Made by a program: the position numbers and the translations under genes | The notes under the pieces: model-generated | The model's database searches: none | The model's input: the letters and a program-made list of their open reading frames with translations, nothing else | What the model was told of the DNA's origin: nothing | Shown here: piece after piece, positions 1,958 to 39,406 of the stretch | Layout: the number at the start of each line of letters is the position of its first letter | How positions within the stretch are numbered: position 1 is the stretch's first letter | NCBI GenBank assembly: GCA_947383095.1 | Contig: CANDBZ010000002.1 | Coordinates: 1 to 50,577, forward strand | DNA length: 50,577 nucleotides | Reading direction: 5' to 3' | Source: an uncultured Clostridia bacterium | Lineage (GTDB): Bacteria; Bacillota; Clostridia; Christensenellales; CAG-917

Positions 1958-3169
1958 ATGCTTGAGCTTTTAATGCCTGCGGGCAATCTCAAAAAGCTGA
2001 AAACCGCGTTTCATTTCGGCGCGGACGCCGTATATGCGGGAGGCAAAAGCCTCTCGCTGCGCGCTCTTGCGGATAATTTCAGTCGCGAGGACCTTTCGGA
2101 AGGTATAAAATACGCCCATTCTCTTGGCAAAAAGGTTTACGTGACCGCAAACATCTTCGCGCGCAATGCGGAGCTCGAGGAAGCTGCGGACTTTTTTAAA
2201 TATTTGGCCTCCGTAAACGCGGACGCGGTTCTTATCTCCGACATAGGTCTTATCTCGCTGTGCCGCGAGATCGCGCCGTCTCTGACGATACACCTGTCCA
2301 CGCAGGCCAATACCACAAACATGCTCGCGGTAAAGTTCTGGCAAAGCCTCGGGATAAAACGCATAGTTCTCGCAAGAGAGCTTTCGCTTGAAGAAATACG
2401 TCAAATACACGACTGCGCGCCCGATATGGAGCTTGAAGCGTTTGTGCACGGAGCCATGTGCGTGAGCTACAGCGGCAGATGCCTTTTGTCATCGTATTTT
2501 TCACAGCGCAGCTCAAACCGCGGCGAATGCGTGCAGCCCTGCCGGTGGAAATACCGCCTGACGGATACGCGAAAAAACTTATCCGTCGACGTTGAAGAGG
2601 ACGACAAAGGTACATACTTTATGAACAGCTGCGATCTGCGTCTGCTGTCGCGCTTGCCGGAGCTCGCGCAGGCGGGCATAACCTCCTTCAAGGTCGAGGG
2701 CAGGATGAAAAGCGAGTTTTACGTGGCGACCGTGGCGACGGCATATCGCCGCGCGCTTGACGAATATATTTCTTGCGGCGAAATACGCAACGCCGATATA
2801 TATGACCGTATGCTTGAAAACATCTCGCATCGAGCGTATACCGAAGCTTATCTCGACGGCCAAAACAACGACACCGTGTCGCTCGACGTGGAGCGGAGCG
2901 AAGAAAAATATAAGTATATTGCGACCGTGCTCGAAACGGACGGCGCTCATATAAGCGTCGAAATGCGAAACCGTTTTCGCAGCGGAGACAGCCTGATCGC
3001 CATAACGCCGAATGATAATTACGGAGCGCGATTTACGGTCGGCAAGATCCTGCATGCCGACAGCGGCGAGTATACCGACGACGCAAAGCTCGTGCAGCAT
3101 AAATACGTCATAGACTGTCCCCTGCTTCTTTGCGCAGGCGATATACTCGTCATCGAAAACAGCCGATAA
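1958..3169 (+). CDS. peptidase U32 family protein (collagenase-like / YhbU-type)
   Basis: The N-terminus MLELLMPAGNLKKLKTAFHFGADAVYAGG, the E-x-F-x-H-G-A-x-C motif (EAFVHGAMCVSYSGRCLLS) and the length are typical of U32. Confidence 0.9.
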   Translation: MLELLMPAGNLKKLKTAFHFGADAVYAGGKSLSLRALADNFSREDLSEGIKYAHSLGKKVYVTANIFARNAELEEAADFFKYLASVNADAVLISDIGLISLCREIAPSLTIHLSTQANTTNMLAVKFWQSLGIKRIVLARELSLEEIRQIHDCAPDMELEAFVHGAMCVSYSGRCLLSSYFSQRSSNRGECVQPCRWKYRLTDTRKNLSVDVEEDDKGTYFMNSCDLRLLSRLPELAQAGITSFKVEGRMKSEFYVATVATAYRRALDEYISCGEIRNADIYDRMLENISHRAYTEAYLDGQNNDTVSLDVERSEEKYKYIATVLETDGAHISVEMRNRFRSGDSLIAITPNDNYGARFTVGKILHADSGEYTDDAKLVQHKYVIDCPLLLCAGDILVIENSR

Positions 3170-3198
3170 AAAAGCCGCTGGGATACAGCGGCTTTTTT
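3170..3198. terminator. bidirectional intrinsic terminator between the U32 gene and the 809-aa gene
   Basis: Hairpin gccgctg-ggata-cagcggc flanked by an A-run and a T-run. Confidence 0.7.
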
Positions 3199-3204
3199 CA
3201 TGCG

Positions 3205-3800
3205 TCAAACCTCGCTCGGCGTATCGCCGGGAGTGCCCTCCTCGGGTACAGCAACGTCCTCGTCTTTTTTCTTCTTATCGCGCTTGCGCCAACCCTTCGT
3301 TTCCTGCGCCTTAGCATTGTCTGCAGTGACCTCTTCGGCGTCTGCGGCTTCATCCTTCTGCTTCTTGTCGCGTTTGCGCCAGCCCTTGGGCTCTTCCGCG
3401 ACTTCGTCCGCACTCGCTTGCTCTACGGCGTCATCGTCGGATTTTTGCTTTTTATCGCGCTTATGCCAGCCCTTCGTTTCCTGCTCCTCCGCGTTGTCGG
3501 CGGTGACCTCTTCGAGGTCAGCGGCTTCATCTTTCTGCTTCTTGTCGCGTTTGCGCCAGACTTTTTGCTCTTCGACGGCAGCTTCGTCGCTTGCGACTTC
3601 CGCAGCGGCAATATCGTCCGCGTTCTTTTGCTTTTTGTCGCGCTTACGTCTGCCTTTTTCTTCCTCGCCGGACTCTTCTATGGGAGCAAACTTTCCTTCC
3701 GCAGTCACTTCGCCGAATTCCTGCGGCGTTTCCTTACGCTTCTTTTCGCGCTTTTTCCGGCTCTTCTCCTCGATCGCCTGTTCTTCGTCGGCTTGAATAT
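3205..3800 (-). repeat. in-frame tandem DNA repeat encoding the RKRDKK/acidic tail
   Basis: cttcttgtcgcgtttgcgccag occurs at 3361 and 3538, an offset of 177 nt or 59 codons. Related ~88-nt sub-repeats carry cttatcgcgcttgcgccaacccttcgtttcctg-type units. Confidence 0.85.
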
Positions 3801-5634
3801 CTGCGTCGTTTTCCGCCTCGGGATCTATCTCGCCGTTGGCAAGTCTCTCTGCGGTTTGCGCCCTGATTATCCTATCGCGCGATACGGCGGTCCTTTCGCG
3901 CGTTCTTCTGCCGCATTCGCGGAAGACGCCCGCCGCAATAACAAGCACGACTCCAACCGCGCCGAAGATACACAACCAATTTCTCAAACCGAGCACGTTC
4001 ATTACCGCCATAAGCAGATTGTTGGATTGCACCCAGGTCGCCTGCATATATCCGAGCATACCGTATTGCGCGTTCATTGGCGATATGCTGACCGCAAGAT
4101 TGTTGTTATCGTCCATACAGAGATTTATATTGAGCTTTGCGCCGCCGGTTGCAAACTGAATGAGCTCGCTCAAATCGTCCTGCAGCAAACCGCCCACAGA
4201 GTCGAGCAGACCTCCCAGCTTCGCAAGAATACCGTTGACCGCTTCCGCAAGCATATCGGGACTCAAATCGATTGTAATGTCGCCTATGTTCACACCCGCC
4301 AAAATTCCCGACAGCCACGTATAAAGATCGAAATTGACAAGATCCATGGGATCGCCCAGCATATCGAGGACGAGCCACTTCATAGGACGTTTTACTACGC
4401 CGTTTTCAAACACCATCCAACCGTCGTCGTTGATACCGTATCTGACGTCGACCTCTTTGCCGTCGCGGTTCATGAGCTTGCCCGTATAGGTATACTGTCC
4501 GCCGCTTTGCTCGAACGCCTTTTGCGCCTCGGGATCGCGGATCTCATAGAGGAAATTATTGTCCTCCGTATAATACACCTTGCCCGTCTCGTCCTGTACG
4601 CCCTGCGTATAAGACCATCCTTCGTTGAGAATAAGACGAAGCACCACAGGCACCGTCATGCGTCCGTTCATCTGCGCGTACAGTAGCAACGGATCGTCAA
4701 ACGTCTGATAACCGTCTTGATTGAAGTTGTCGTAGTTGTCGTCGAAAAGCTGCTTGATCTTTTTGTTTTTAAAGCCTTCCTTAAGCAGCGTTTCATATCC
4801 GCTGTGTGCGTACTCGTAATCGACAAGAGCTAGCGCAAACGCACGCCTGTCGACATTGTTTATCATGGCGTAGCTGAAATCGTTGAGCACGTAGGTTTTA
4901 TAAATAAACTGATACAGCTCGTATTTTCTCGGTTGCTTCTTTGCCATGGCGTCTATTATGTCCGCCTGAAGCTCCGCCATCGAATAATCTCTGACATACT
5001 CCGATACTCTCTGTTCGATCTCTTCGTTATCGTATTTGCCGTTTTGCTTGTCGCGCTTGGACAAGGTGGCGTACGAATAATCTCCGTTGGGCTTGCCGTC
5101 GTTGTTCAGGCTTCCGTTGAGGAGATTGTACATGATGAAATCTCTGTCAAGCTTCGCGTTTTTCTCCGCCTGCTCGGCGCCGTTATAATAAAGGTCCTCC
5201 GCAAACAAAGTGTTTTGCGTTGCAAAAGAGATCACGTCGGGCAGAATATAAGTCAACAACAGTGCGAAAACGGACGTCAGACAGACAAAGGTTATCGCCA
5301 CCTTTACCGTTTGACCGCCTATATTGCTCTTGCTGTTTTTTCTTGTCACAGCAAGCGTAACGCCCAGGAAAATCAAACCGAACACGCCCGCTATGATAAC
5401 GCCCACAAACGGCCAGAAGGTATAGTACGGCGCAAGCTGATAGCATTTTGCCGCCAACACGATGGTCACCGCCAAAATAGGCACAAACGCCAGAATGTGC
5501 AACAGTACCGCCACCAAAGTATAGCCGACCGACGTCTTGCTTTGGTCTTTTTTGGTGCGCTTGCTCACGGGAAACGCTTCCTCTATTATCTCGCCTTGCT
5601 TATCGAGATTGTAAATTTCTTTATTCTCTTTCAT
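3205..5634 (-). CDS. large multi-pass membrane protein with an extracytoplasmic domain and a repeated basic/acidic C-terminal tail. No family recognised.
   Basis: 809-aa ORF with GAGGAGG upstream. About 4 N-terminal hydrophobic helices, a ~400-aa hydrophilic domain and a late TM (WLCIFGAVGVVLVIAAGVF). The tail has 7 copies of a [KR]KR[DE]KK motif separated by acidic spacers. Confidence 0.85.
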   Translation of the reverse strand: MKENKEIYNLDKQGEIIEEAFPVSKRTKKDQSKTSVGYTLVAVLLHILAFVPILAVTIVLAAKCYQLAPYYTFWPFVGVIIAGVFGLIFLGVTLAVTRKNSKSNIGGQTVKVAITFVCLTSVFALLLTYILPDVISFATQNTLFAEDLYYNGAEQAEKNAKLDRDFIMYNLLNGSLNNDGKPNGDYSYATLSKRDKQNGKYDNEEIEQRVSEYVRDYSMAELQADIIDAMAKKQPRKYELYQFIYKTYVLNDFSYAMINNVDRRAFALALVDYEYAHSGYETLLKEGFKNKKIKQLFDDNYDNFNQDGYQTFDDPLLLYAQMNGRMTVPVVLRLILNEGWSYTQGVQDETGKVYYTEDNNFLYEIRDPEAQKAFEQSGGQYTYTGKLMNRDGKEVDVRYGINDDGWMVFENGVVKRPMKWLVLDMLGDPMDLVNFDLYTWLSGILAGVNIGDITIDLSPDMLAEAVNGILAKLGGLLDSVGGLLQDDLSELIQFATGGAKLNINLCMDDNNNLAVSISPMNAQYGMLGYMQATWVQSNNLLMAVMNVLGLRNWLCIFGAVGVVLVIAAGVFRECGRRTRERTAVSRDRIIRAQTAERLANGEIDPEAENDADIQADEEQAIEEKSRKKREKKRKETPQEFGEVTAEGKFAPIEESGEEEKGRRKRDKKQKNADDIAAAEVASDEAAVEEQKVWRKRDKKQKDEAADLEEVTADNAEEQETKGWHKRDKKQKSDDDAVEQASADEVAEEPKGWRKRDKKQKDEAADAEEVTADNAKAQETKGWRKRDKKKKDEDVAVPEEGTPGDTPSEV

Positions 5635-5636
5635 TT

Positions 5637-8267
5637 TCAGCGCACCTCCTCGTCAGAATTTTGTTCTACAGGCAAGGAGATATCCTCCTCCGCGCCGTTT
5701 TTCTTCTTCTCGCGTTTACGGCGCTTCGGCTGCTCGGCATCCGTTTCGTTTTCTACGTCGCCGTCGACCGCTTTTTTGTCGCGCTTGCGGCGTTTGACCT
5801 TTTCCTCAACGCCTTCCTCTTCAACCTCGGATTCTTGAGTCTCGGCAGCTTCGTCTTTGGCAGCGCCGTCCTTGGATCCGGATTTCTTATCGCGCGCTAC
5901 GCGCATGCCCGTAGCGTATTCTTCCTCTCTCTGCGCGGCGACAAAGCTCAAGAAATAGAACAGTATCGTTATCCCCGTGAAAGAAGCAAGTATGTCGCGC
6001 AAAGCAAACAGCGGGAAGTATTGGGGTTGATAGGACATATCCGCCTTCAGCTGTTGCACGGCTATCAGGCTGTCAAGTCCGAAAGAAGAAGGATAATTGC
6101 CCGTACCGAGCTTATCGCCGATCAACGTGGAGCCTATCATGCCGCCGTATACCTTGCCGAGATACGTCGCTCTTTCAAGCGCGGCATAGTGCTTTTGCAT
6201 CGCATAATAATTGTCTTCTATGAGATTGCCGTCCATGTCGTAAAGCTCTACCTCGTAGAATTCCCACACAGGCTTGATAACCGCGGACTGATAACCGTAC
6301 CAATTTCGCAGCAAATTCTCGAGAATACCCACGATGTCTATTGCGACCTTTTTATTCGCGTCGAAAAGCGGAATGCTTATGCCGCTTATCTCCAAGCCCT
6401 TGTAGGTCTGTCCGTTGAAATCGATATCCTTGAACAAGCCGAACGTGCCGAGCAGGTTGACAACGGTATCCACGACTCCGCTTATATTGTAGGTTTCGAT
6501 AAGATTGTTGAGAACGGTGTTCAAAAACTCGCTCAAATGGTCAAAGTCGAACGCATAATCGGATTCGTCCTTGTCAAGCGCTTCGCCGTTGAAATCTATG
6601 TCGAGGAGAATATCGGTCTCGGGATTGGTGCCGCACGCGCCCTCGCCGTTATCCCTGACGATCGCAAGATAAAGATTGTTTCTCTTGATGCCGAAGCAAT
6701 CGTCCGCTTTGTAGGTGAGGCAGATATAAAGGTCGTTTACCTCAAGCTCCGTTTTGCCCAAGGCCTTTGCCAAAATATCGATAATCGTCGCCATAGTGGC
6801 TTCATTGTTTATGAGAGAGCCCAGACTCAAGCCCTTGCTCAACTGCGTAAGGAAGCTACTCAAGCCGCCGCCGAGGATCGGCACCTTGTTGATAAGGTCG
6901 CCAACACCTATATCGCCAACTATATTGTCGATGTTTGTAAACAGATAATCGAACAGCGCGTTATCGCCCAGCAATGCGCCGACCTGCGCAAGCAGCTCGT
7001 CCAGCTCGTCGCGGGTAAGCGAGAACCTGCCGTTCATATCGAATTCCTGATTGTAAAGAGCAGTGATCCACGGGTCGACCTCGACAAGCTCGCCGTCTTC
7101 GTAAAGACGACCGTTGTAATAATCGTCGCGTCTTTGCAACGCTTCCTCGTGCATCTTTTTGTAATTTTCCTGATACCACTTCGCGTCGGCAAATTCGTCT
7201 CCGTTTTCGATCGCGTCCTTTGCGGCATAGTAATCTTCAAGGATTTCTATGACGTTTTCCATGCTGAATACCCAACCGTCGGACAGCATTCCGTTTTGAT
7301 TGTAAAGTCCCTTGCCGTAAATGCCTTGCGTCGACTTGGCCGTGCCTTCGCCCTTCTTTTCGTCCCAGACCCATGACGTGGGCATCATGTCTTTGGCATA
7401 CCAGGTATATGCGTCGACCCCCTTGACGGAGCCTCTTTTCACATAGAAATAATGCGAATAAACTTCGCCGTTTATGACAAGCCTGCCCTTGCCGTCGGGC
7501 TTTAACTCTACGACCTGCTTGCCCTCGACCGCCTTGTCTATCTTGCCGTCGCCCGCAAACGTATTGCCGTTTGAGGCGTCGCAATCAAGCTTGTGGAAGC
7601 CCGTCGCGTCGTCGCGCACGAATGAAATATCCACGCCCGTCACGCCCGTATCGGAAATGATGTTATAATAAGTGACGGGTTTATTGCTTATGTTGCCCGC
7701 CGTACCGCTTTTATCGATGCCTTCCATCTCGACGTTGTACACGGCTTTTAATGTCTCGATTTGCTTTATAAGACTTTCCGTGACGTTTTTCTTATGCCCG
7801 TTCGACGAAATTGTACGATAATAAGACAATTGCGTTTTATAGTCGTTGACGACAACGCCCTGCGGCGCGTTTTCCGCTATCCCGTCTATCTTCGCGGCAA
7901 GCGTCGCGTCCATAATAAACATGCTACCCAGCATGACGACAAGCGTTGTCGCCGCAACGGACAGCATCCTCGCGCGGCGGCTCTTGACGGTCTTGCTCAA
8001 GACGATGTGCACAATGGCTATAAACGCCCATATGCCAAACGCGATCCAAATGCCGTAAAGCGCCGGTGACGAGAACAGCTTCTCGAAATCCACAAAGAAC
8101 CCAAGTGCCGTCGTCGCTTCCGAGGTGCCCGTAAACGGATCGTGCCCGATAAACTTCACCGCGGAAAGAAACACCGCTATGAAGAAAAGCGGAAGCCCCA
8201 ACATATAGAACGCAACCTTGAGCGCGCGATACGTTTTGACCTTCTGATATTGTCGGTCCTGACTCAT
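5637..8267 (-). CDS. large multi-pass membrane protein with the same architecture as the downstream 809-aa protein. No family recognised.
   Basis: 876-aa ORF with AAGGAGAAG upstream. N-terminal TM helices, a ~600-aa hydrophilic domain, a late TM (ILASFTGITILFYFLSFVAA) and an acidic tail with KRRKRDKK and KRRKREKKK motifs. The stop lies 2 nt before the next gene's ATG. Confidence 0.85.
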   Translation of the reverse strand: MSQDRQYQKVKTYRALKVAFYMLGLPLFFIAVFLSAVKFIGHDPFTGTSEATTALGFFVDFEKLFSSPALYGIWIAFGIWAFIAIVHIVLSKTVKSRRARMLSVAATTLVVMLGSMFIMDATLAAKIDGIAENAPQGVVVNDYKTQLSYYRTISSNGHKKNVTESLIKQIETLKAVYNVEMEGIDKSGTAGNISNKPVTYYNIISDTGVTGVDISFVRDDATGFHKLDCDASNGNTFAGDGKIDKAVEGKQVVELKPDGKGRLVINGEVYSHYFYVKRGSVKGVDAYTWYAKDMMPTSWVWDEKKGEGTAKSTQGIYGKGLYNQNGMLSDGWVFSMENVIEILEDYYAAKDAIENGDEFADAKWYQENYKKMHEEALQRRDDYYNGRLYEDGELVEVDPWITALYNQEFDMNGRFSLTRDELDELLAQVGALLGDNALFDYLFTNIDNIVGDIGVGDLINKVPILGGGLSSFLTQLSKGLSLGSLINNEATMATIIDILAKALGKTELEVNDLYICLTYKADDCFGIKRNNLYLAIVRDNGEGACGTNPETDILLDIDFNGEALDKDESDYAFDFDHLSEFLNTVLNNLIETYNISGVVDTVVNLLGTFGLFKDIDFNGQTYKGLEISGISIPLFDANKKVAIDIVGILENLLRNWYGYQSAVIKPVWEFYEVELYDMDGNLIEDNYYAMQKHYAALERATYLGKVYGGMIGSTLIGDKLGTGNYPSSFGLDSLIAVQQLKADMSYQPQYFPLFALRDILASFTGITILFYFLSFVAAQREEEYATGMRVARDKKSGSKDGAAKDEAAETQESEVEEEGVEEKVKRRKRDKKAVDGDVENETDAEQPKRRKREKKKNGAEEDISLPVEQNSDEEVR

Positions 8268-8538
8268 AATCTTCTCCTTGCGGACACGGCGATTGCACGC
8301 GCATGCCCGTCACCCTAATAGTATATATTATGATAACATATTGCATAATATATTTCAATATACATTTTGTGAGATTTTTGGGATTTTCACTCAACGCGCA
8401 TACTCGGCGCAAAATATCGGACGGGCGAAAAGCGGCGCATAAATTTTCAGGCGGGCGAAAAAAATATTTGCCTGTATGATAAAGGTAGTGTATATTTTTT
8501 ATATAATCAGGCGGGAAAAATAAAAAAGGAGGCTTCAT

Positions 8539-9894
8539 ATGTCATACATCAACGAAGTCATTGAGCAAACCGAGAAAAGAAACGCGGACCAAAAAGAGTT
8601 TTTGCAGACAGTAAAAGAAGTCCTCGGCTCCCTCGCGCCCGTTATTGAGGAAAACGAGGCTTTATATCGCAAATACTGCATTTTGGAAAGAATAGTGGAG
8701 CCCGACCGCCAGATCATTTTCCGCGTGCCGTGGATGGACGACAAGGGAGTCTGCCACGTCAATCGCGGCTACAGAGTGCAATTCAACGGCGCTATTGGTC
8801 CTTATAAAGGCGGACTGCGCTTCCAGCCAAACGTCAATCTTTCGATCATGAAATTTCTGGCGTTCGAGCAAACGTTCAAAAATTCCCTCACCACCCTCCC
8901 CATGGGCGGCGCAAAGGGCGGCAGCGACTTCGACCCGCGCGGCAGAAGCGACGACGAGATCATGCGCTTTTGTCAATCATTCATGAACGAGCTGTATCGT
9001 CACATCGGTCCCAACCTCGACGTTCCCGCAGGAGATATGGGCGTCGGCGGCAGAGAGATAGGATATCTCTTCGGTCAATACAAAAAAATACGCAACGGCT
9101 TCGAGAACGGCGTGCTCACCGGCAAAGGCATGTCGTACGGCGGCAGCAACATAAGACCGGAGGCCACGGGATACGGCGCGGTTTATTTCCTCGAGGAAAT
9201 AATGAAACATCAAAAAGACTCGATTAGAGGCAAGGTTTTTTGCCTTTCGGGTTACGGCAACGTCGCTTGGGGCGCGGCAAAGAAGCTATCCGAATTGGGC
9301 GGAAAGGTCGTCACGATTTCCGGCAGTGAAGGCTATATTTACGATAAGGACGGCATAAGCGGAGAAAAAGTCGATTTCATGACGCATATGCTCGCCTTAC
9401 GCGCGGAGGGAAAGAGCGCGCTGCAAGCATACGTAGAAAAATTCGGCGGCGAATTCCATAAGGGCGAAAAGCCCTGGGGCAAGGTCAAAGCGGACGTATA
9501 TATGCCCTGCGCCATGCAAAACGAGATAAATCTCGACGACGCGAAAAAAATGATCGGGCTCGGCGTAAGATATCTTTGCGAGGTTTCCAATATGCCCACG
9601 GCAAACGACGCATTGGATCTGCTTGTCGAAAACGGGGTAATAGTCGCTCCCGCAAAAGCGGCGAACGCTGGCGGCGTCGCGGTGAGCGGCCTCGAAATGT
9701 CCCAAAACAGCCAACGCTTGAGCTGGTCGTCGCAGCAGGTGGACGATATGCTTAAAAACATCATGAAGAGCATACACGAAAACATCGTGCAAACGCTCGA
9801 AAAATACGACTTGCCCTACAATCTCATTCAGGGGGCGAATCTCGCGGGATTCAAAAAGGTTGCGGACGCAATGCTTGCGCAGGGACTCTATTGA
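8539..9894 (+). CDS. gdhA: NADP-specific glutamate dehydrogenase
   Basis: The 451-aa product has the GGAKGGSDFDP active-site region and the overall Glu/Leu/Phe/Val dehydrogenase pattern. AAGGAGG lies upstream. Confidence 0.95.
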   Translation: MSYINEVIEQTEKRNADQKEFLQTVKEVLGSLAPVIEENEALYRKYCILERIVEPDRQIIFRVPWMDDKGVCHVNRGYRVQFNGAIGPYKGGLRFQPNVNLSIMKFLAFEQTFKNSLTTLPMGGAKGGSDFDPRGRSDDEIMRFCQSFMNELYRHIGPNLDVPAGDMGVGGREIGYLFGQYKKIRNGFENGVLTGKGMSYGGSNIRPEATGYGAVYFLEEIMKHQKDSIRGKVFCLSGYGNVAWGAAKKLSELGGKVVTISGSEGYIYDKDGISGEKVDFMTHMLALRAEGKSALQAYVEKFGGEFHKGEKPWGKVKADVYMPCAMQNEINLDDAKKMIGLGVRYLCEVSNMPTANDALDLLVENGVIVAPAKAANAGGVAVSGLEMSQNSQRLSWSSQQVDDMLKNIMKSIHENIVQTLEKYDLPYNLIQGANLAGFKKVADAMLAQGLY

Positions 9895-15228: not shown

Positions 15229-16899
15229 ATGGAACTCAAATTTTTGACTCCGACAGAAGTATGGGACGGCTTCGATCCGTCCGCTCTGCCTTTGGAAAGC
15301 TCAATAATCTCTTCTGAATCCGCGGACAATCTCGTCTGCACGAAGCAGTATTTCACTGCGGAGGAAACGGCGCAGGGGCGCGTCCGCGCATATATGGAGA
15401 TATACTTCGACAGCCGTTGGGCGGACGCCCGCGCGGCGATCATGCTGTTGCCGTCGTGCGCAAGCAAGGACTACGCGCCCATAGTAAGGTCCCTCGTTGC
15501 GGAGGGCTATGCGGTTTGTCTGTTGGATTATTGCGGCGGAATAGTCGACGAAACGGACAAAACAACATTCCCGCAGGACTTGGACTTCGCCTCTTATCCC
15601 GCATGTATGACAAAACTTGACGTCATTGCCGACAATGCGCGAAACACCCCCTGGTTCGTCTGGAGCAAGACTACTCGCCGAGCAATATCTCTTCTCGCCG
15701 AGCAAAATATCGTAGACAGCGCGCATATAGGCATAATAGGCATGGGCGAGGGCGCTCACGTCGCTTGGCAGGTCGCCGCTATGGACGCTCGCGTCCGCGC
15801 GCTTGTCGCGGTTGGCGATTGCGGATACAGATGGGCGAAAAATAAACCCCGTTTTTTGGACGGCAACGTCCCCGCCACAGACGAAGAACGCGCCTTTTCC
15901 ACAGGCGTAGGCGCGGAGACGTACGCCAAATTCGTGCACTGCCCGACCCTGCTCGTCATGCCGCGCTCGTCTCATATGTCAGACGTGGACAGAGCCGGCG
16001 ACATACTCGCTCTTGTAAAATCCGAACGTAAACAGCTTATTATCGGAGGCGGCAACGAGGTGCAATTCACGCGCACGGCTTTCAACGTAATGTTGGGTTG
16101 GCTCCGCGACAGCTTTACAGTCAATCCTGACGCCGCGACGGATTCGCCCTCCGCGTCCTTTGAAAACATAGACGGCAAGCTGTATCTGAAGCTTTTCACC
16201 GCGCACAAGGCGGTAAAATCAGAGGTATACGTCTGCTACGGCGAGGCGATATCCAGCGCAAGGCATTGGGACGTGCTGTCCGATCTGCAAAAAATAGATA
16301 CCCACCTGTACACCGTACGCGTGCCCGTATTCGATCCGAACGAGCTGATCGTCGCATATGCGTCATTTACGTATACGAACGGAAACTGCATTTCTACGCC
16401 CTTACAGGCGGTCGTGCCCGTCAAAACGGGCGTGCAAAAAAGCGATTCTCTGCGCGAATCGTCGCGTATCATCTACGACGGGAGCATGGGACTCGGCTCG
16501 TTCTCATGTCTCAACGGAGAAGCTATCCTTGAAGAAAACTTTTTGAAACAGGAAGTGGGTCCGTTTGACATCAAGGGCATAACCACATCGTCCGGAGGCC
16601 TGTCGCTTTGCCGCAGCGCGGCGGAAGTCGCGTCCCTCGACAACACGTCGACGCTACACTTTGACGCATACTCCGCGGAGGAAAGAGAGCTTTCCGTCTG
16701 CATGTACACTTATCCGGAGCTAAAGAAATACACCGCTTTTGCGGAGCTTATGGGCGGCGAATTCTGGCAAAAACTCATTTTACACTGCGCGGATTTCAAA
16801 AGCGAAGAGGGAAAAACGCTCGCAAAATTTGCGGACGCAAAAATACTGTTTATAAACGACGCAAGCGGCGTTATATTCAACAATTTTTTGTGGATTTAA
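15229..16899 (+). CDS. alpha/beta-hydrolase-fold-like protein (AXE1/dienelactone-hydrolase-like N-terminal half) with an uncharacterised C-terminal half
   Basis: The 556-aa product has a nucleophile-elbow-like segment, HIGIIGMGEGAHVAWQVAAMDARVRALVAVGD, which reads G-M-G-E-G instead of G-x-S-x-G. Confidence 0.55.
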   Translation: MELKFLTPTEVWDGFDPSALPLESSIISSESADNLVCTKQYFTAEETAQGRVRAYMEIYFDSRWADARAAIMLLPSCASKDYAPIVRSLVAEGYAVCLLDYCGGIVDETDKTTFPQDLDFASYPACMTKLDVIADNARNTPWFVWSKTTRRAISLLAEQNIVDSAHIGIIGMGEGAHVAWQVAAMDARVRALVAVGDCGYRWAKNKPRFLDGNVPATDEERAFSTGVGAETYAKFVHCPTLLVMPRSSHMSDVDRAGDILALVKSERKQLIIGGGNEVQFTRTAFNVMLGWLRDSFTVNPDAATDSPSASFENIDGKLYLKLFTAHKAVKSEVYVCYGEAISSARHWDVLSDLQKIDTHLYTVRVPVFDPNELIVAYASFTYTNGNCISTPLQAVVPVKTGVQKSDSLRESSRIIYDGSMGLGSFSCLNGEAILEENFLKQEVGPFDIKGITTSSGGLSLCRSAAEVASLDNTSTLHFDAYSAEERELSVCMYTYPELKKYTAFAELMGGEFWQKLILHCADFKSEEGKTLAKFADAKILFINDASGVIFNNFLWI

Positions 16900-28964: not shown

Positions 28965-29261
28965 AAACACCTCGACAAATTATAACTTTTACGAGTCAAA
29001 GCTTCTTTCGTTTTTCTCTTATAATGAATATAAGATTTATAAATATAATATATCACATATTATGATTTGTCAATTTGCCCGCCGTGTATGAATAATTATA
29101 AAATTTTGCCAATAAATATGAATAAGCTTTGACCCTGAAACATGCAAGATAATGCAGATTTGCAAATTCCGTTTCTTTAATTCTCGTTTGATCAATAATT
29201 TATGTATACGGTTCATAATACGCGTATAGCGGAGAGACCGTCCTTATGCGCGAAAATATAT

Positions 29262-29771
29262 TTAATACGAATATTCCAGACCGTAGCACCCGTCGTCGAT
29301 TTCGTTTTGCACATGATCAAAGCCGTTTTCGTCTATGATTTTAAATCCGCATTTTTTATGTGCGCATAATGAGGATATATTTTTCTTGGACACGCAATCG
29401 TAAATCGTAAATTTACCGCTTGTTTTTAACTCGTTTATCATTTCTGTCAACAACCCGGTCGCGTACCCTTTATTTCTTAATTTCGGCATTGTTTCCAGCG
29501 CTTCGAGATAGTAAAACCGCTCTCTGATAAGATAAAGCCGCAATGCGCAAACCCATTTGCCGTTTTCTTCCAGCACATAATATATGTTGCCTCCGTTTAA
29601 AAACTCTTCTTTGATATATCTGCAATATTCGATTTCGACCGCTTTTATGGCTTCGGCTTCGTTTGTTATTTGCGGATAAAATACGGCCGCGTTTTCTCTG
29701 TTGCTTTCTTCATACACGGACATCAGCTTTTCGCAGTCGATCTCGTTCGGATTTGAAATTTTGAATACCAT
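29262..29771 (-). CDS. GNAT family N-acetyltransferase
   Basis: 169 aa with LRNKGYATGLL (an R/Q-x-x-G-x-A/G-like motif). AAGAGG lies upstream. Confidence 0.8.
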   Translation of the reverse strand: MVFKISNPNEIDCEKLMSVYEESNRENAAVFYPQITNEAEAIKAVEIEYCRYIKEEFLNGGNIYYVLEENGKWVCALRLYLIRERFYYLEALETMPKLRNKGYATGLLTEMINELKTSGKFTIYDCVSKKNISSLCAHKKCGFKIIDENGFDHVQNEIDDGCYGLEYSY

Positions 29772-29783
29772 GCTTTACCTCTT

Positions 29784-30359: not shown

Positions 30360-30365
30360 GTTTTT

Positions 30366-31782: not shown

Positions 31783-32658
31783 CTATTTATTTTCTCTTCC
31801 AAACGCCTCGATATATGCTTTTTCAAGTTGTCTTTTATCTGCTGGAATGTTCTTCCCAAAAGGGCTTTGAACGCAAGCTTTAAGCAAATCGTCGATATTT
31901 GCCTTTATGTCTTCAACGACCCATTTCGCCTCTCCGCCGAGATATAACGGACCCGTCGTCACAAAATATTTAAACCGCAACTCAACGTCTCTCGACCCGT
32001 CCGTACGCGTTATCCCGCAAAGATTGAAATACTTATTGTCTAATTTATGCGCGACTTTCAAAAACAGGACATCGTCCGTCCGCATATCTATAGCAAACAT
32101 GTAGCCGTTGTCGTACGCCAACAAAAAATACTCGTTCAATCTGTCGACGGCAATGCCTGTGAGCGTATCTCCGGATACTTTATATTTGAATATGTTTTTG
32201 ACTACTCTACCGCTCTTTGCGCTTATCAACGACAGTCCGCCCGAGGACGACGACCACTCGCAAAAAATTTTGTCTTGATATACAAACACTTTAGTCAATC
32301 TGTTTATGGGGCTTTTCCACAACACTTCGTTTGTGCATAAATCGACGCACTTCGTTTCATTCCTTAAGTACGACGGCACTATGGCGTATTTGTCGAGCAG
32401 TATGCTTATACCCTTTTTCGCTTCGCAAAGAGCGAGCGCCTCTATATTTGTAAGTTGTATGCTTCCCGCAATCTTGCCGTACGCATCGTAAAAGTCGCAT
32501 TTTGCAAGCTCGTTCATACGCGCGCCGCTTTCTTTGCTGAACATTGGATTGACAAACTCGCACTCGCATCTTAAAAACCGCGATGAATCAAACGACTCGT
32601 ATATCGCTTCAAAATTGCCTATCTCCCTGCTTCTTTCAAAATCCGACTTAAAAATCAT
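31783..32658 (-). CDS. hypothetical 291-aa protein, paralog of the 32675-33550 product
   Basis: Alignable blocks against its neighbour: TNEVLWKSP vs TNKLLWSWP, CEWSSSSGGLSL vs TEWCFTGRGGLTV, VDRLNEYFLLAYDNGYMFAIDMRTD vs INRLNEQFMFIYSEGGVFLLDMHTD, and EKAYIEAFG vs ERAYKKLFG. Confidence 0.75.
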   Translation of the reverse strand: MIFKSDFERSREIGNFEAIYESFDSSRFLRCECEFVNPMFSKESGARMNELAKCDFYDAYGKIAGSIQLTNIEALALCEAKKGISILLDKYAIVPSYLRNETKCVDLCTNEVLWKSPINRLTKVFVYQDKIFCEWSSSSGGLSLISAKSGRVVKNIFKYKVSGDTLTGIAVDRLNEYFLLAYDNGYMFAIDMRTDDVLFLKVAHKLDNKYFNLCGITRTDGSRDVELRFKYFVTTGPLYLGGEAKWVVEDIKANIDDLLKACVQSPFGKNIPADKRQLEKAYIEAFGRENK

Positions 32659-32674
32659 ACGCTTTTTTTAAAAT

Positions 32675-33550
32675 TTACGCCTCCGCGCCGAACAACTTTT
32701 TATATGCTCTTTCCACTCCTACTATAGTTGTTGGAATTCTTATTCCTAAAGGACTTTCTTTAATTTCATCAATTATTTCTTTTATCGGCACGGTTATCTC
32801 TTTTTTCTCCCATCCCAACGGGTCTGTTGAATACACGCGAACATATCCCTTGTTAACAAATGTGAACGTTAAATTCCCGTCGTTGTTTTCAACATTCGTT
32901 AAAACTACAAACTCCGCGTCTTGAGTCATAAATTCGCGGAAAAGTTTTTTAGACATATATAGTTTATCCGTATGCATGTCAAGCAAAAACACACCGCCTT
33001 CCGAATATATAAACATAAATTGCTCATTCAATCTGTTTATATAAGGATGATGCATTTTTGTATTGTAGGTCATTACCTGCCGCAGTATCTCGCCGGTTTC
33101 CAAATCAAATACGGTCAGTCCTCCCCTACCTGTAAAACACCATTCCGTGTAAACGTCTTTACCTCTGACATAAACATAATAAAACTCATTTGCGGGCCAG
33201 GACCACAACAGTTTGTTAGTCTTTATCTCAAAACATGCTGCTGCGCCTTTATATGCGCCGGGAAAAATCAAATGCTTTCCGTTTTCCGCTACAGCAATAG
33301 GTTTTTCCCATGCAAAACAACTCCACGCCTCCGAGTTTGGAAGCATAAGACGACTCACTTCGTTATCGTCGTCATCGTATAATCTACACTCCGCAATTAT
33401 GCCCTTATTTGTGAAATATTTGCAGTCGCATACGCTTTTTCTTATTTTTTCCGACTCATATTTTTCATATGTTGTAATAACGCGCCCCTCTTCCTGCCGC
33501 GGTAAGCCTCCACTTATCAATGATTTATCTATATTTGATTGCGCTTTCAT
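32675..33550 (-). CDS. hypothetical 291-aa protein, paralog of the 31783-32658 product
   Basis: AGGGGAAA SD, identical length and shared blocks with its neighbour. The strand-rich repeat pattern hints at a beta-propeller-like fold, which is inference only. Confidence 0.75.
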   Translation of the reverse strand: MKAQSNIDKSLISGGLPRQEEGRVITTYEKYESEKIRKSVCDCKYFTNKGIIAECRLYDDDDNEVSRLMLPNSEAWSCFAWEKPIAVAENGKHLIFPGAYKGAAACFEIKTNKLLWSWPANEFYYVYVRGKDVYTEWCFTGRGGLTVFDLETGEILRQVMTYNTKMHHPYINRLNEQFMFIYSEGGVFLLDMHTDKLYMSKKLFREFMTQDAEFVVLTNVENNDGNLTFTFVNKGYVRVYSTDPLGWEKKEITVPIKEIIDEIKESPLGIRIPTTIVGVERAYKKLFGAEA

Positions 33551-33561
33551 TTATTTTTCCC

Positions 33562-34311
33562 CTACATTGTCTCGAGGTCTAAAATCTTCTTCTTTTTGCC
33601 GCAATTTGCGCACTCGAGCTTTATTGTTATCCAATCAAATGCGTCTCTCCAATTCTCTTCCGTCACGACGTCCGTGCCGTCGCCGACGTTGTCGCAAAGC
33701 AGCTGCTCCTTGCCTATATTTGAAAACGTCAAAAATATTTTGTATCCCGCATCCTTGCAATGTTCTCTTTTTGTCTTCATATTCCCGTCCGCCGCATATT
33801 GCTTATCCGGTTCGTCAAAATGATTGCACATGCCGTCGTACCCGTGACATCTGCTGTCAAACAGCACAATTTCTTTGCCGCACTTTTTACACTTTGCAAC
33901 AAGATATTCATAAATCGTGGGGCTGTCGTCGTCTTCCATGAAAAAATGTCCTATATAGTTTTTATCCTTTATTGCCTCCTCAAGCGAGCCGTAATCTTTA
34001 CCCAACTCGCCAATAACATACATCCAGCAGTTTTTACCAAGCTCGCCGCCGCCCGTCCAAAGACACATATACTTTATCTCGTTTTCCTCGGTATAATTTT
34101 TAAAAGGTCCTATTCTTTTATCTCTCATCTCCTCGGCTTTTTTCTCTATTTCAGCCATCTTTTCCATAAAAGGATAACTGCGCTTGAAGTATATATATCT
34201 ATACTTAAAAACATCGCTTCCGCAATCGCAAATTATTTCGCACGTTTCTGTTTCACCTTTGACGGATACCGTGCGCGCATTATTTTTTATATATTTTGGA
34301 ATTATCGACAT
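33562..34311 (-). CDS. hypothetical 249-aa protein with paired CxxC motifs (zinc-ribbon-like)
   Basis: AGGTGG SD. Cys motifs are C-x3-C-x-C (CEIICDC), CKKCGKE, CHGYDGMC and CANCGKK. Confidence 0.75.
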   Translation of the reverse strand: MSIIPKYIKNNARTVSVKGETETCEIICDCGSDVFKYRYIYFKRSYPFMEKMAEIEKKAEEMRDKRIGPFKNYTEENEIKYMCLWTGGGELGKNCWMYVIGELGKDYGSLEEAIKDKNYIGHFFMEDDDSPTIYEYLVAKCKKCGKEIVLFDSRCHGYDGMCNHFDEPDKQYAADGNMKTKREHCKDAGYKIFLTFSNIGKEQLLCDNVGDGTDVVTEENWRDAFDWITIKLECANCGKKKKILDLETM

Positions 34312-35559: not shown

Positions 35560-35707
35560 CCGCTTTTTTGATATAAATCTATATATTGATATTTTGTCGA
35601 AGTAGCAGCACTATCGATAGATTTATTGTGTTTTTTTCCACTTGTCAACATGGCTTATTTATGTTATCATTATTAAAAATAAATATAATAAATATCAGGT
35701 GAAGAAA

Positions 35708-36808
35708 ATGAAGGTTTTATGTCAGGGAAAAGAGTTGAGCGACGCTCTCTCGAAAGTTGTAAAGGCATTGCCTCAAAAGAGAAATAATCCTATACTCGAA
35801 GGCGTTAAATTGTCCGCATACGGCGATACACTCACACTCTTCGCAACAGATCTCGAGCTTGCTATAGAAAAGAAAATAAACGCGCAGGTCTTGATAGAAG
35901 GAGAAATCGTAGTTCCGGGCAAGCTGTTTGCCGACTATGCTAAAAAGATAGAAGAAGAACAGGTTGAATTGGACGGGACGACGATAACCAAGCTCGTCAT
36001 AAGATATCTTGAAAGCGAGCTTCAAATGAAAAGCCTGACAAGCGACGAATATCCGCTCTTTCAGGAGATAAACGCGGACAACTCTTTCACGATACTCAAG
36101 AAGGACTTTAAGGAAATCATAAACAAAGTGTTGCTTGCCGTGAGCGTCGACGACAGCAGGCCTGCTTTGAGAGGCGTTTGTCTCAATATAAAAGACGAAG
36201 AGGTCGAAGCCGTTGCAACTGACGGATACCGTCTCGGCTCCGCAAAGGCGTTGATCAAGAAAAACGGTATCGTCGGAAAGCTTGTCGTGCCGTCGAAGAG
36301 TATCACGGAGATAAGCAGACTTATAGACGACAGCGACGAGACGGTTACGGTGTTTGTAGAAAAGCATTATATCATGGTGGATCTTTTCCATACGAAAATC
36401 GTCACGCGTCTCATCAGCGAGGAGTTTTTAAATTACTCGAAGGTCATTCCGACTTCTTTCGAGACGACAGTTACGGTAGATAAGCAGGTTTTTGAAAAAG
36501 CGATCGATCGCGCTTCCCTTATCAACAGAAACGAGCGCAATTCTATCGTAAAGATCGATGTAAAAGAAAAGGAAATACTTCTCAATGCGCGCAGCGAGGA
36601 CGGCGAAATAAACGAGCGTATAACCGCAGGCATAAACGGAAAGGATATCACGATTGGTTTTACGGTCAAATATATTAGCGAATGCTTGCGCGCCATCGAC
36701 GATCCGTTTATAACGCTCAACTTCAACACATCCACTTCTCCATGCATTATAAACAGCGAAAACGGAAATTGGCTTTATCTGATTTTGCCGATCAGGGTCA
36801 TAGGTTAA
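35708..36808 (+). CDS. dnaN: DNA polymerase III beta subunit (sliding clamp)
   Basis: MKVLCQGKELSDALSKVVKALPQKRNNPILEGVKL...TDLELAIE is typical of DnaN. I set the start at the Met with AGGTGAAG upstream. The ORF track opens at 35642. Confidence 0.95.
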   Translation: MKVLCQGKELSDALSKVVKALPQKRNNPILEGVKLSAYGDTLTLFATDLELAIEKKINAQVLIEGEIVVPGKLFADYAKKIEEEQVELDGTTITKLVIRYLESELQMKSLTSDEYPLFQEINADNSFTILKKDFKEIINKVLLAVSVDDSRPALRGVCLNIKDEEVEAVATDGYRLGSAKALIKKNGIVGKLVVPSKSITEISRLIDDSDETVTVFVEKHYIMVDLFHTKIVTRLISEEFLNYSKVIPTSFETTVTVDKQVFEKAIDRASLINRNERNSIVKIDVKEKEILLNARSEDGEINERITAGINGKDITIGFTVKYISECLRAIDDPFITLNFNTSTSPCIINSENGNWLYLILPIRVIG

Positions 36809-36842: not shown

Positions 36843-38210
36843 TTATCTGTTTAAAAGCATGTTTTTTATGTCTGCTACGGTTATCTTTATACGCGTGTTG
36901 GTTTTGATCTCATCGGTTATTTTATCGCGCGCATGGATAATAGTAGTATGATCTCTGCCGCCGAAAATCTCACCTATTTGAGCGAGAGGCATCGGGAGTA
37001 AATCCGTGATGAGATAAATTGCGATCATCCTCGGCTCCACAAGATTTTTTGTCTTTTTCTTTGAAAACAAATCATCCGTAGAGATTTTATAGAATTTGCA
37101 GACAGCGCCAATAATATCGCTTGCGTCGATCGCTCCGTCTTTATCCTCGATAAAATCGCTCAACGCTTCCGCGGCGAGCTCTCGCGTGTTTATGACATTG
37201 TTTGTAAGAGAACTGAAAAACACGATTTTGTTTAACAAACCTTCCATTTCTCGTATATTAGAAGTTGCGTTTTCCGCGATATAATCGGCAACCTCGTCCG
37301 ATAGCTGAAATTTTGCCTGCGCCGCTTTATTTTTCAAGATAGCGACTCTCGTTTCCATATCCGGCGGCTGTATGTCTACAGTCAATCCCCAGCTGAAGCG
37401 AGTGCGCAATCTATCCTCGAGTGTGGTCAGTTCTTTTGGAGAGCGGTCGGAGGTGATTATAATCTGTTTATTTGTTTGATATAAATCGTTGAATATATGG
37501 AAAAATGCTTCCTGCGTTGCGTCTTTTCCTATCAAAAATTGAATATCGTCGATCATAAGAACGTCGCAGGATCGATATTTTTCTCTGAATTTATTGTTTT
37601 CTTCGTTCGATTTTGTTCTTATGACCGAAATAAGCTCCGTGACAAGCGTTTCCGCGCTGACATAAAGAACGCTCAAATTACTTCTATCCTTGCAAATAAG
37701 ATTACCTATTGCGTGAAGCAAGTGGGTCTTGCCGAGTCCTACTCCCGAATATATAAACAGCGGATTGTATTTTTGACCCGGAGTGTCCGCGACCGTCTTG
37801 CATGCAGCCAAAGCATAGGCGTTGGACTTGCCCTCGATAAAAGTGTCGAACGTATATTTGTCGAGAAAGGGCGATTTTGTTTTTTGAGTGTCGGCCATCG
37901 GCCTTTTTTCAGATTGAGGAGAAACAAGAGAATCCGTCTGTTTGTTTATATATTCTTCCTTTTGAGAAGGGAGAATGACCAACACGTCCGTTATAGACGA
38001 ATTTAAAGACGAAACGACTTCTTTTATAATTTCCAGATATTTGTGATCGATAGTTCTTTTGGCGCTTGCTGCAACGGTAGATAAAACAATCGTGTTATCG
38101 ACAAAACAAACAGGCTCGAGTGCTTCTATCCAAACCTCGTAGTATATAGCCTGTATCGATTTTGAAAGCTCGTATTTGGCGTCCGACCAAAATTTTTCTA
38201 TGTTTATCAT
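36843..38210 (-). CDS. dnaA: chromosomal replication initiator protein DnaA
   Basis: Walker A GVGLGKTHLLHAIGN, DDIQFLIGKDATQEAFFHIFN and the C-terminal DNA-binding HTTIIHARDKI. I set the start at MINIEKFWSD. The 36-codon upstream extension looks like translated AT-rich spacer. Confidence 0.93.
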   Translation of the reverse strand: MINIEKFWSDAKYELSKSIQAIYYEVWIEALEPVCFVDNTIVLSTVAASAKRTIDHKYLEIIKEVVSSLNSSITDVLVILPSQKEEYINKQTDSLVSPQSEKRPMADTQKTKSPFLDKYTFDTFIEGKSNAYALAACKTVADTPGQKYNPLFIYSGVGLGKTHLLHAIGNLICKDRSNLSVLYVSAETLVTELISVIRTKSNEENNKFREKYRSCDVLMIDDIQFLIGKDATQEAFFHIFNDLYQTNKQIIITSDRSPKELTTLEDRLRTRFSWGLTVDIQPPDMETRVAILKNKAAQAKFQLSDEVADYIAENATSNIREMEGLLNKIVFFSSLTNNVINTRELAAEALSDFIEDKDGAIDASDIIGAVCKFYKISTDDLFSKKKTKNLVEPRMIAIYLITDLLPMPLAQIGEIFGGRDHTTIIHARDKITDEIKTNTRIKITVADIKNMLLNR

Positions 38211-38216
38211 AATTGA

Positions 38217-38244
38217 ATTATAGCAAAAACAAGGAATAAAACAA
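38217..38244 (-). promoter_or_regulatory. candidate dnaA promoter with its -10 box ending 6 nt before the ATG
   Basis: The minus strand reads TTGTTT, a 16-nt spacer, TATAAT, then tcaatt-ATG. There is no SD. Confidence 0.35.
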
Positions 38245-38317
38245 GCAAAAATCCGAAAATAAAAAACAAAAGCATTATGTTGAAAAAAAATCGAGGTTAA
38301 TATATACTTATTGTGCA

Positions 38318-39406
38318 ATGAAAATCATCTCGCTGGAGCTAAATAATTTCAGAAACTATAAGCACGCGTTTGCGGAGTTTGACGACGGGCTTAACGTTTT
38401 ATATGGAAAAAACGCAAGCGGAAAGACAAATATGATTGAAAGTATTTATTTATGCTCTATTTTTCACAGCCCGCGCACAACCAAAGATAAAGAGATGGTT
38501 TTGATCGGAGAAGCAAAGGCAAATATAAATCTTATTTTGCAAAAGAAATACAGAAAGCACAGTATAAATTTGCAAATAGACGAAAAAGGCAAAAAGAAAA
38601 TATTGGTTGACAATATTCCTCTTAACAGAGCCGGCGAATTGTTTGGAGTACTCGGCGTGGTTTATTTCTCACCCGACGAAATGAAGCTTGTAAAAGAGTC
38701 GCCGCAAGAAAGACGCAGATTTATGGACGTCGGGTTGAGTCAACAGCAGCGAAGCTATTTTTATGCGTTGCAGCGGTATAACAAAACGCTCAAGCAAAAA
38801 AACAATCTTTTAAAGGAATGGAGAAATAATAAAAATATAGATTCTATGCTCGACGTGTGGGATATGGGGCTCGCAAAGGAAGGCGCGGAGATAATTTTCA
38901 AAAGGATAGAATACGTCAAGGTGTTGAACGACGCGGCAAGCAAATTTCATACCGCGATGAGCGAAGCAAAAGAAGAGTTGAGATTGACGTATGAATGCGC
39001 CGCTGATATTTCTGATAAAAACGAGCTCAAGCAATCATTATATGAAGAGATAGTAAAAACGCGAGCAAAAGACAAGGAATTGGGATACTGCACGGTGGGT
39101 CCTCACAGAGACGATATAAAAATAGAGATAAACGGAAAGGACAGCAGAAAATTTGCTTCTCAAGGACAGCAGAGAACTATCGCGCTTGCACTTAAGCTCG
39201 GCGAAGTTATAATATACAAAAACGAAATAGGCGAACCGCCCGTACTTTTGCTTGACGACGTATTGAGCGAGCTCGATATGCAAAGACAAAAGCTTTTGCT
39301 TGAGATGACGGCAGGGTTTCAAACTATACTGACCTGTACAGAGTTTGATATGAATGAAAAAGCAAACAAAATACAAATAAGCGACGGCGCCGTTATTCCA
39401 GGATAA
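38318..39406 (+). CDS. recF: DNA replication and repair protein RecF
   Basis: MKIISLELNNFRNYKHA, Walker A GKNASGKTN, and the C-terminal signature and Walker B regions (SQGQQRT, LLLDDVLSELD). Confidence 0.93.
   Translation: MKIISLELNNFRNYKHAFAEFDDGLNVLYGKNASGKTNMIESIYLCSIFHSPRTTKDKEMVLIGEAKANINLILQKKYRKHSINLQIDEKGKKKILVDNIPLNRAGELFGVLGVVYFSPDEMKLVKESPQERRRFMDVGLSQQQRSYFYALQRYNKTLKQKNNLLKEWRNNKNIDSMLDVWDMGLAKEGAEIIFKRIEYVKVLNDAASKFHTAMSEAKEELRLTYECAADISDKNELKQSLYEEIVKTRAKDKELGYCTVGPHRDDIKIEINGKDSRKFASQGQQRTIALALKLGEVIIYKNEIGEPPVLLLDDVLSELDMQRQKLLLEMTAGFQTILTCTEFDMNEKANKIQISDGAVIPG

Follow-up and report, generated by a model that had tools for sequence, protein, structure and literature searches.

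The window analysed here, a stretch of 50,577 nucleotides (nt) from an uncultured Clostridia bacterium of the Christensenellales (positions 1 to 50,577 of contig CANDBZ010000002.1, assembly GCA_947383095.1), carries two adjacent genes, A and B, for large membrane proteins that very probably form an obligate complex. Judged by sequence profiles and predicted structures, the pair appears to represent a protein family and a gene module without detectable relation to any described family or solved fold. The fuller statement, that A and B make up an obligate heteromeric membrane complex with an extracytoplasmic role in the cell envelope, is put forward with about even confidence. As far as the labels of metagenome-assembled genomes (MAGs) show, the complex would belong to a previously undescribed family from uncultured, Christensenellales-type Clostridia of gut and digester. 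These are widespread, health-associated gut bacteria; they are mostly uncultured and, to our knowledge, essentially nothing has been established about their envelope biology.

A and B constitute a self-contained two-gene operon between its own promoter and terminator, since a promoter-like site and a ribosome-binding site are found upstream and a bidirectional terminator downstream. A sequence-only reading of this DNA had described two open reading frames (ORFs) 2 nt apart, bracketed by a terminator and a divergent promoter; the ORFs were recovered at the exact coordinates, with a promoter-like site and a terminator on either side. The genes, with the number of transmembrane (TM) helices before and after the ectodomain, and their signals are:

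Promoter-like site of the A-B operon, 8330..8358, minus strand: TTGAAA, 17 nt, TATCAT, with the TG of an extended -10 box; a consensus match only
Shine-Dalgarno (SD) sequence of gene A, 8274..8279, minus strand: AAGGAG, 6 nt before the ATG, read from the sequence
Gene A, 5637..8267, minus strand: ORF of 876 amino acids (aa), a predicted 3+1 TM protein with a 631-aa ectodomain
SD sequence of gene B, 5643..5651, minus strand: GAGGAGGTG within the last codons of A (E-E-V), the ATG of B being 8 nt downstream
Gene B, 3205..5634, minus strand: ORF of 809 aa, a predicted 3+1 TM protein with a 422-aa ectodomain
Bidirectional intrinsic terminator, 3168..3198, both strands: A-tract, GC-rich stem GCCGCUG/CAGCGGC, U-tract

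About 60 nt upstream of the ATG of A, the promoter-like site belongs to the sigma-70/sigma-A type and scores best among the candidates in 2900..8700, agreeing with the consensus at 10 of 12 positions and having the TG. The terminator, a strong one, sits in the 35-nt gap between B and a convergent peptidase U32 gene and is common to both; its folding energy (dG) is -21.6 kcal/mol (z -4.77), and none of 200 shuffled sequences folded equally well. Between the TGA stop of A (5639-5637) and the ATG of B (5634-5632) there are only 2 nt. Within the window the pair occurs once, roughly 30 kb away from dnaA/dnaN.

Relatives of both proteins form a narrow, lineage-specific family. In a collection of 5.8 billion proteins, A has 151 homologs with 35-57% identity, and B has more than 1200 matches with 50-86% identity over a core of about 620 aa; all of these matches are unnamed or 'hypothetical', with no meaningful Pfam tag. 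An exhaustive hidden Markov model (HMM) search with the A profile among 1.84 billion representative proteins gave only 145 relatives. Scanning one genome per GTDB species yielded 66 loci, essentially all from MAGs labelled Christensenella sp., Clostridia or Clostridiales and originating from gut, rumen or digester; labels such as 'Bacteroides sp.' or 'Phascolarctobacterium' were not trusted.

Lack of conservation of the pair in related genomes had been named beforehand as a point that could decide against the complex, but the two genes proved to be adjacent, on the same strand and tightly coupled in all related loci with enough DNA. A is located directly upstream of B in every one of these (about 60 species-level MAGs, 25-65% identity), and the adjacency is kept in the most divergent, compact forms (L061-L069), including two loci (L061 and L062) where tblastn missed A and a right-sized 3+1-TM ORF occupies its position. 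The translational coupling that had been read from the 2-nt gap is a general feature as well: the spacing from stop to start is between -4 and +4 nt in about 55 of 60 loci, and an SD of GGAGG type lies within the last three to five codons of A in 53 of the 60 surveyed. The C-terminal '(K/E)EV' of A is encoded by AAGGAGGT/GAGGAGGT, which is the SD of B (5640-5654 in the window, at the same position in L001-L069), and compact forms of A end in 'GG[KR]' (GGAGG). Because the embedded SD is conserved in these last codons, the 'KEV' end (AAG GAG GTn) is, at least partly, an imprint of the ribosome-binding site of B, a protein 'motif' that largely reflects a constraint on the nucleotides.

In the main clade the entire neighbourhood is syntenic (GDH, A, B, peptidase U32, DUF896, UDG and a GerA operon), and for this reason the gene context is uninformative there. 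The distant loci have wholly different neighbours (MatE/GH43/M6/GH20, PHO4/PhoU, NfeD/FloA, PAP2 or DUF1538), and a conserved third gene sought among them was not found. Since the pair persists where the neighbours differ and are mutually inconsistent, A-B is an autonomous two-gene module. At one of these loci (L069, 9242-10913) genes for NfeD and for a flotillin-like FloA, a membrane-microdomain scaffold, directly follow the compact pair on the same strand; this is a single locus, and the arrangement may be coincidental.

Independent support for the complex, which the sequence-only reading had offered as a candidate, came from natural fusion proteins, in which A and B are joined in one chain:

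A-B fusions, representatives P0340, P0344, P0350, P0352, P0356, P0358 and P0398, and locus L070 at 6001-8937: single-chain forms from a higher-GC lineage (59% GC)

The seven representatives, taken at 50% identity, are among the 145 relatives given by the A profile, are distant from the window proteins and have 784-1081 aa. Their N-terminal halves match the compact-A profile (99.9% probability, E 6e-32), and their C-terminal halves match the B profile from TM3 through TM4 (99.2%, E 6e-20, 340 columns). Their TM helices are arranged as 3+1+(1 or 3)+1, and a basic linker follows TM4 of A, so that both ectodomains are predicted to stay outside; several fusions appear to be without the TM1-TM2 hairpin of B, giving a 3+1+1+1 pattern. 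In one case a 21-kb contig of 59% GC carries the fusion as a single gene of 978 aa, with no separate A or B gene nearby. As Rosetta-stone fusions, these proteins argue for a physical complex of A and B. In a single representative, P0317 (749 aa), an A-type N-terminal half is joined with an outer-membrane barrel domain that matches LptD strongly (E 3.4e-68); being most likely the product of a chimeric metagenomic assembly, it was rejected as a genuine architecture of the family.

Both proteins are predicted to be membrane-anchored with large outward-facing domains and to follow one plan: a cytoplasmic N-terminus, TM1, a short outer loop, TM2, a short basic inner loop, TM3, a large ectodomain, TM4 and a cytoplasmic tail. 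Of the envelope-spanning complex that the sequence-only reading had proposed as a candidate, the data support this much: anchoring in the membrane and large domains that face outwards. Hydropathy and composition thus agree with the shared plan proposed from the sequence, namely an N-terminal TM bundle, a domain of 400-600 aa rich in D, N, G and Y, a late TM helix and a tail with basic boxes; the 'bundle' of helices is present, its number being exactly three. Hydropathy gave the 3+1 pattern also for the sampled homologs of both families. According to Kyte-Doolittle hydropathy and the positive-inside rule, the TM helices of A are at about 22-40, 72-90, 101-127 and 759-777, with the ectodomain at 128-758, and those of B at 41-59, 76-94, 112-130 and 553-571, with the ectodomain at 131-552. 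The predicted parts of A are:

Residues 22-127, TM1-TM3 scaffold, 7887..8204, minus strand: from hydropathy, invariant columns and homology to TM1-3 of B
Residues 128-758, extracytoplasmic domain, 5994..7886, minus strand: from AlphaFold2 (AF2) secondary structure, a core/insertion map and composition
Residues 759-777, TM4, 5937..5993, minus strand: directly preceded by invariant R757 and nearly invariant D758
Residues 778-876, charged cytoplasmic tail, 5640..5936, minus strand: predicted to be disordered, pLDDT below 50 over 797-876

The predicted parts of B are:

Residues 41-130, TM1-TM3 scaffold, 5245..5514, minus strand: P52 in TM1, and invariant P132-D133 directly after TM3
Residues 131-552, extracytoplasmic domain, 3979..5244, minus strand: from invariant columns
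Residues 553-571, TM4, 3922..3978, minus strand: from hydropathy
Residues 572-809, cytoplasmic part, 3208..3921, minus strand: conserved basic juxtamembrane helix RECGxKTRxRTAVSRDRIIRA, then a polyampholyte tail
Six diverged copies of a unit of about 90 nt, 3266..3773, minus strand: from a repeat search, with spacings of 87-108 nt; units at the protein level

The scaffold of A contains conserved G24/P26 in TM1, W80/H87 in TM2 (His87 being replaced by Gln in compact forms) and the invariant D120 at the outer end of TM3. Its counterparts in B are P52 in TM1, D133 at the outer end of TM3 and the invariant R551 just before TM4, which corresponds to R757 of A. The Asp and the Arg are invariant in all four alignments, as are, in the compact alignments, the equivalents of the Gly/Pro motif in TM1. 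Most invariant residues of both proteins are located in the ectodomains. The ectodomain of A has a helical core with beta-rich insertions at about 181-321, 503-556 and 584-657 that are absent from compact relatives (MAFFT --add map). The ectodomain of B is 50-65% identical across species with many invariant residues and contains the strongly conserved motifs NGxLN, NQDGYQTFDDPLLLYAQ, WLVLDMLGDPM and PMNAxYGMLGYMQATWVQSNNLL, which recur in compact forms; relative to these, the same mapping shows a gained helical insertion at 183-282. D, N, G and Y together make up 32-33% of both ectodomains (Tyr 6.3-6.9%), and the net charges are -43 (A) and -24 (B). Compact forms have 464-553 aa (A') and 413-587 aa (B'). 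The ectodomain sizes of A and B were also correlated from genome to genome, but this result was discarded because the TM calls made from hydropathy contained noise at several loci; the description keeps to size classes.

The scaffolds of A and B are probably homologous. Comparison of compact A with compact B in hhalign gave a probability of 93% (E 3.4e-7), the confident columns covering TM1 (lGFPl motif), TM3 and the pre-TM4 Arg with TM4, and the TM1-3 region of the compact-B HMM also matches the N-termini of many A-type proteins. The profiles of the large forms reached a probability of only 24%, with no ectodomain homology, and in BLASTP the direct similarity of A and B was limited to the low-complexity tails. 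A 26% match between A439-542 and B435-523 was rejected as ectodomain homology, the profiles giving it no support. Hence the description 'paralog-like' applies to the TM scaffold, where it was detected in compact members only, and not to the ectodomains, which seem at the sequence level to be unrelated or diverged past recognition.

The sequence-only reading had recognised no known-family motif in either protein, and placement in a characterised family was what would have spoken against it; sequence, profile and fold searches placed neither. Pfam and NCBIfam gave no curated family above threshold for A and B, Pfam no match for ten compact A'/B' proteins, and PADLOC (E<=0.1) and PHROGs (E<=0.01) no match to defence or phage families; the sub-threshold matches to curated families all fell in TM segments or low-complexity tails. 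Sequence-profile searches of PDB with the four alignments gave tail or low-complexity noise only, for example the YukC tail at E 0.028. Cluster look-up of the relatives returned no meaningful names, and literature searches nothing relevant to the family. The label 'heme/copper-type cytochrome/quinol oxidase subunit 4' given by JGI to a compact B looks like an automatic, TM-driven mis-annotation and was set aside.

Foldseek searches with whole chains of the AF2 models, both against PDB and model A also against BFVD, found nothing below E ~0.8, and those against PDB nothing below E=1. The absence of a fold match is meaningful for A because its model, built from a 62-sequence alignment, is good (mean pLDDT 80.9, pTM 0.70), and weaker for B because the model is mediocre (mean pLDDT 60, moderately confident). 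Foldseek rows at E 7-9 (the alpha-pore-forming toxins HblL1, SmhA and XaxB, as well as TTYH1 and SecDF) were treated as chance.

Among known systems, the closest in layout are the tetraspanins of eukaryotes (CD9, CD81, CD63; PF00335), membrane organisers that act via lateral association. Like A and B as predicted, they have four TM helices with both termini in the cytoplasm; the first outer loop is small, the inner loop is short, and the outer loop between TM3 and TM4 is large. However, the tetraspanin outer loop has about 80-130 aa against 420-630 aa in A and B, and its EC2 region carries a CCG motif and four to eight conserved disulfide cysteines, whereas the ectodomains of A and B are almost Cys-free (0.6% and 0.2%, respectively), with no CCG and no invariant Cys. 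No Pfam match to the family and no tetraspanin among the Foldseek PDB matches was obtained for A or B, and the tetraspanins are eukaryotic, while A and B are bacterial, form an obligate two-gene pair and, in certain lineages, end in long disordered tails. Only the topology is alike.

Bacterial systems differ in other ways. LolC/LolE and the FtsX/MacB-type (type VII ABC) permeases likewise combine four TM helices with one large extracytoplasmic domain, and LolC and LolE are adjacent paralogs that act as a heterodimer on envelope components. Their large domain is, however, between TM1 and TM2 and not between TM3 and TM4, they need a co-encoded ABC ATPase, which is not adjacent to A and B in L001-L003 and L061-L069, and neither the large nor the compact forms of A and B match FtsX (PF02687) or MacB_PCD (PF12704) in Pfam. 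SecD and SecF are an adjacent, distantly paralogous pair with large periplasmic domains, work in one complex and are fused in some bacteria, but they are members of the RND superfamily with six TM helices per subunit, compared with four in A and B. SecD_SecF (PF02355) was not matched in Pfam or NCBIfam, and SecDF (3aqp) appeared for B in Foldseek only at E=9.4, so the parallel is limited to gene organisation. CcsB/ResB of Firmicutes, from system II cytochrome c biogenesis, also places a large extracytoplasmic loop between its N-terminal TM helices and a late one, and works with a partner membrane protein. A and B differ from it in having no match to ResB (PF05140) and no CcsA/ResC partner or thiol-redox genes nearby, the neighbours being GDH and peptidase U32, and the defining conserved TM histidines were not found (His87 of A is replaced by Gln in compact forms).

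The scaffold could also be taken as that of a channel, transporter or flippase, in which two homologous 4-TM units make a pseudo-symmetric 8-TM pore or groove, the outer-leaflet Asp and Arg act on an ion or a lipid-linked substrate, with the ectodomains gating the passage or receiving the substrate. Transporters typically have homologous repeated TM scaffolds, and the invariance of the boundary Asp/Arg (D120/R757 in A, D133/R551 in B and their compact equivalents) together with the conserved Gly-Pro in TM1 would fit such a role. Nevertheless, few conserved polar residues lie inside the TM helices, conservation and mass are mostly in the ectodomains, and no similarity to any transporter family or fold was found; moreover, the fusions apparently lacking the TM1-TM2 hairpin of B are hard to square with a fixed 8-TM pore. 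Although it survives better than the other alternatives, this explanation is considered improbable.

The cytoplasmic tails vary from 14 to 487 aa across the family and are nearly absent in compact forms. The charged boxes described from the window sequence are there, two in the 99-aa tail of A (RRKRDKK and RRKREKKK) and six in the 238-aa tail of B, with acidic spacers, but they are not general to the family: the tails with RKRDKK boxes are a lineage-specific decoration and not a family trait. In B the period is about 30 aa (90 nt), each unit coding for a basic box of K-G-W-R-K-R-D-K-K-Q-K type followed by an acidic spacer; this diverged repeat was not detected by Tandem Repeats Finder and was found by a second repeat search. 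The tail of B is predicted to be disordered, with pLDDT below 50 over 635-809. In A, the very end of the tail is conserved as '...LPVxxNSD(K/E)EV'.

Within a genome the tails of A and B share a repeat unit that differs between genomes (3208-3921 and 5640-5936 in the window; L004, L005 and L047): RKRDKK here, EKKGLFG[KR]KKKK in L004 and KPKKKRFGKKEKP-like in L005. In the four long-tailed genomes A and B share 37, 21, 11 and 8 tail 4-mers, against a cross-genome mean of 0.33. At the DNA level only box-coding segments of 14-23 nt match between the two tails of the window. These shared repeats suggest concerted evolution or a shared partner, and they hint, as a second and independent sign, that A and B are one unit.

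Such repeat-rich, fast-evolving tails, along with the lineage-specific beta-rich insertions in the ectodomains and the occurrence of the family mainly in gut and rumen MAGs, might point to a surface receptor or adhesin for contact with a gut host or partner, with ectodomains diversified by insertions and tails that signal or anchor. This is doubtful, and more so than transport: the ectodomain is well conserved across species (at the level given above for B), unlike in typical adhesins, each gene occurs once, at a syntenic position of the core genome, and the tails contain no output domain and are nearly absent from the compact members.

A membrane complex specific to sporulation or germination, acting for example in the membrane of the forespore or spore, appears equally doubtful. 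In the main clade a GerA/GerAC germinant-receptor operon is located about 3 kb from A-B in a conserved layout; however, this adjacency is little informative where the whole neighbourhood (GDH, U32 peptidase, UDG and more) is syntenic, the distant loci have no sporulation neighbours, and the promoter-like site is of the sigma-70/sigma-A type. Finally, that A and B are independent membrane proteins, adjacent by inherited synteny only, is very improbable and already disfavoured: strong synteny makes adjacency alone weak evidence within the main clade, but A and B stay adjacent in loci that retain no other synteny, the embedded SD is conserved along with the junction, natural fusions exist and the tails share genome-specific repeats.

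If, as preferred here, A and B act as one envelope complex, they would be co-transcribed from one promoter, and B would be translated by ribosomes starting at the SD in the last codons of A, leading to matched amounts of both proteins. Each would be inserted with its N- and C-termini in the cytoplasm, and the distantly homologous 3+1 scaffolds may pack as a pseudo-symmetric bundle, every scaffold having its conserved Asp at the outer end of TM3 and its conserved Arg at the outer start of TM4. This bundle would display two different acidic ectodomains, rich in Tyr, Asn, Asp and Gly, on the outer face of the membrane, where they might act in the cell-wall zone, most likely by binding, organising or processing an envelope glycopolymer, and the cytoplasmic tails would be dispensable lineage-specific additions. 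Action outside the membrane is probable because most invariant residues lie in the ectodomains and the tails are nearly absent in compact forms. Four features suggest a role with an envelope polymer: the conservation of the ectodomains, their composition, which is like that of carbohydrate binders, the position in the core genome and the dispensable tails. The setting is housekeeping-like: a single copy, conserved synteny, proximity to dnaA/dnaN and no defence or phage match.

Several points weigh against this reading. No catalytic motif, known domain or informative conserved neighbour was found for A or B, leaving it without a biochemical clue, and the envelope-glycopolymer idea draws only on composition (acidic, rich in aromatic residues, Asn, Asp and Gly) and location. 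Of the two monomer models, that of B is only moderately confident (pLDDT 60). At a probability of 93% the homology of the scaffolds falls short of certainty, and the profiles of the large forms did not show it. The fusions could in principle be sequencing errors that joined adjacent genes, although the existence of seven divergent representatives with remodelled linker and TM count argues against it.

A bolder possibility, offered tentatively, is that A and B form an unrecognised bacterial membrane machine: a pseudo-symmetric heterodimer on a tetraspanin-like 3+1 scaffold, with ectodomains without a solved counterpart, performing a core step of envelope biogenesis or organisation specific to Christensenellales-type gut Clostridia. 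If a core envelope complex is indeed involved, it would be a new type of bacterial membrane scaffold, an analogue of tetraspanin topology used as a heterodimer, and could also be of use as a marker or target specific to the lineage. MAGs contain many unknown membrane families, and this lineage is mostly uncultured; the potential value of the present case is that the module is cleanly delimited, universally paired, coupled and occasionally fused, and that its predicted structure matches nothing solved. It offers testable hypotheses (an A-B heteromer, a functional Asp/Arg site at the membrane boundary and dispensable tails), and the fusions provide a natural single-chain form fit for structural work.

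Outside the pair, the window encodes a predicted 1256-aa surface protein (25200-28970, minus strand) with BspA-type leucine-rich repeats and a Listeria-Bacteroides repeat domain, as well as two large ORFs without a Pfam match, of 1076 aa (21347-24577, plus strand) and 556 aa (15229-16899, plus strand). ORFs of 554-557 aa, also without a Pfam match, are found in the same position in L001 and L003, adjoining an S26 signal peptidase gene. The region 28000-40000 has a lower GC content (38-44% versus about 50% elsewhere) and includes the origin genes together with three consecutive ORFs of 291, 291 and 249 aa without a Pfam match (31783..34311, minus strand).

The replication-origin region (35642-39406) has an unusual order: dnaN (35642..36808, plus strand) is convergent with dnaA (36843..38318, minus strand), the usual order being co-directional dnaA-dnaN, and recF (plus strand) starts at 38318, overlapping the first base of dnaA on the opposite strand. 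The genes gyrB and gyrA are on the minus strand at 42.9-47.3 kb, and the minimum of the cumulative GC skew is near 34-36 kb.

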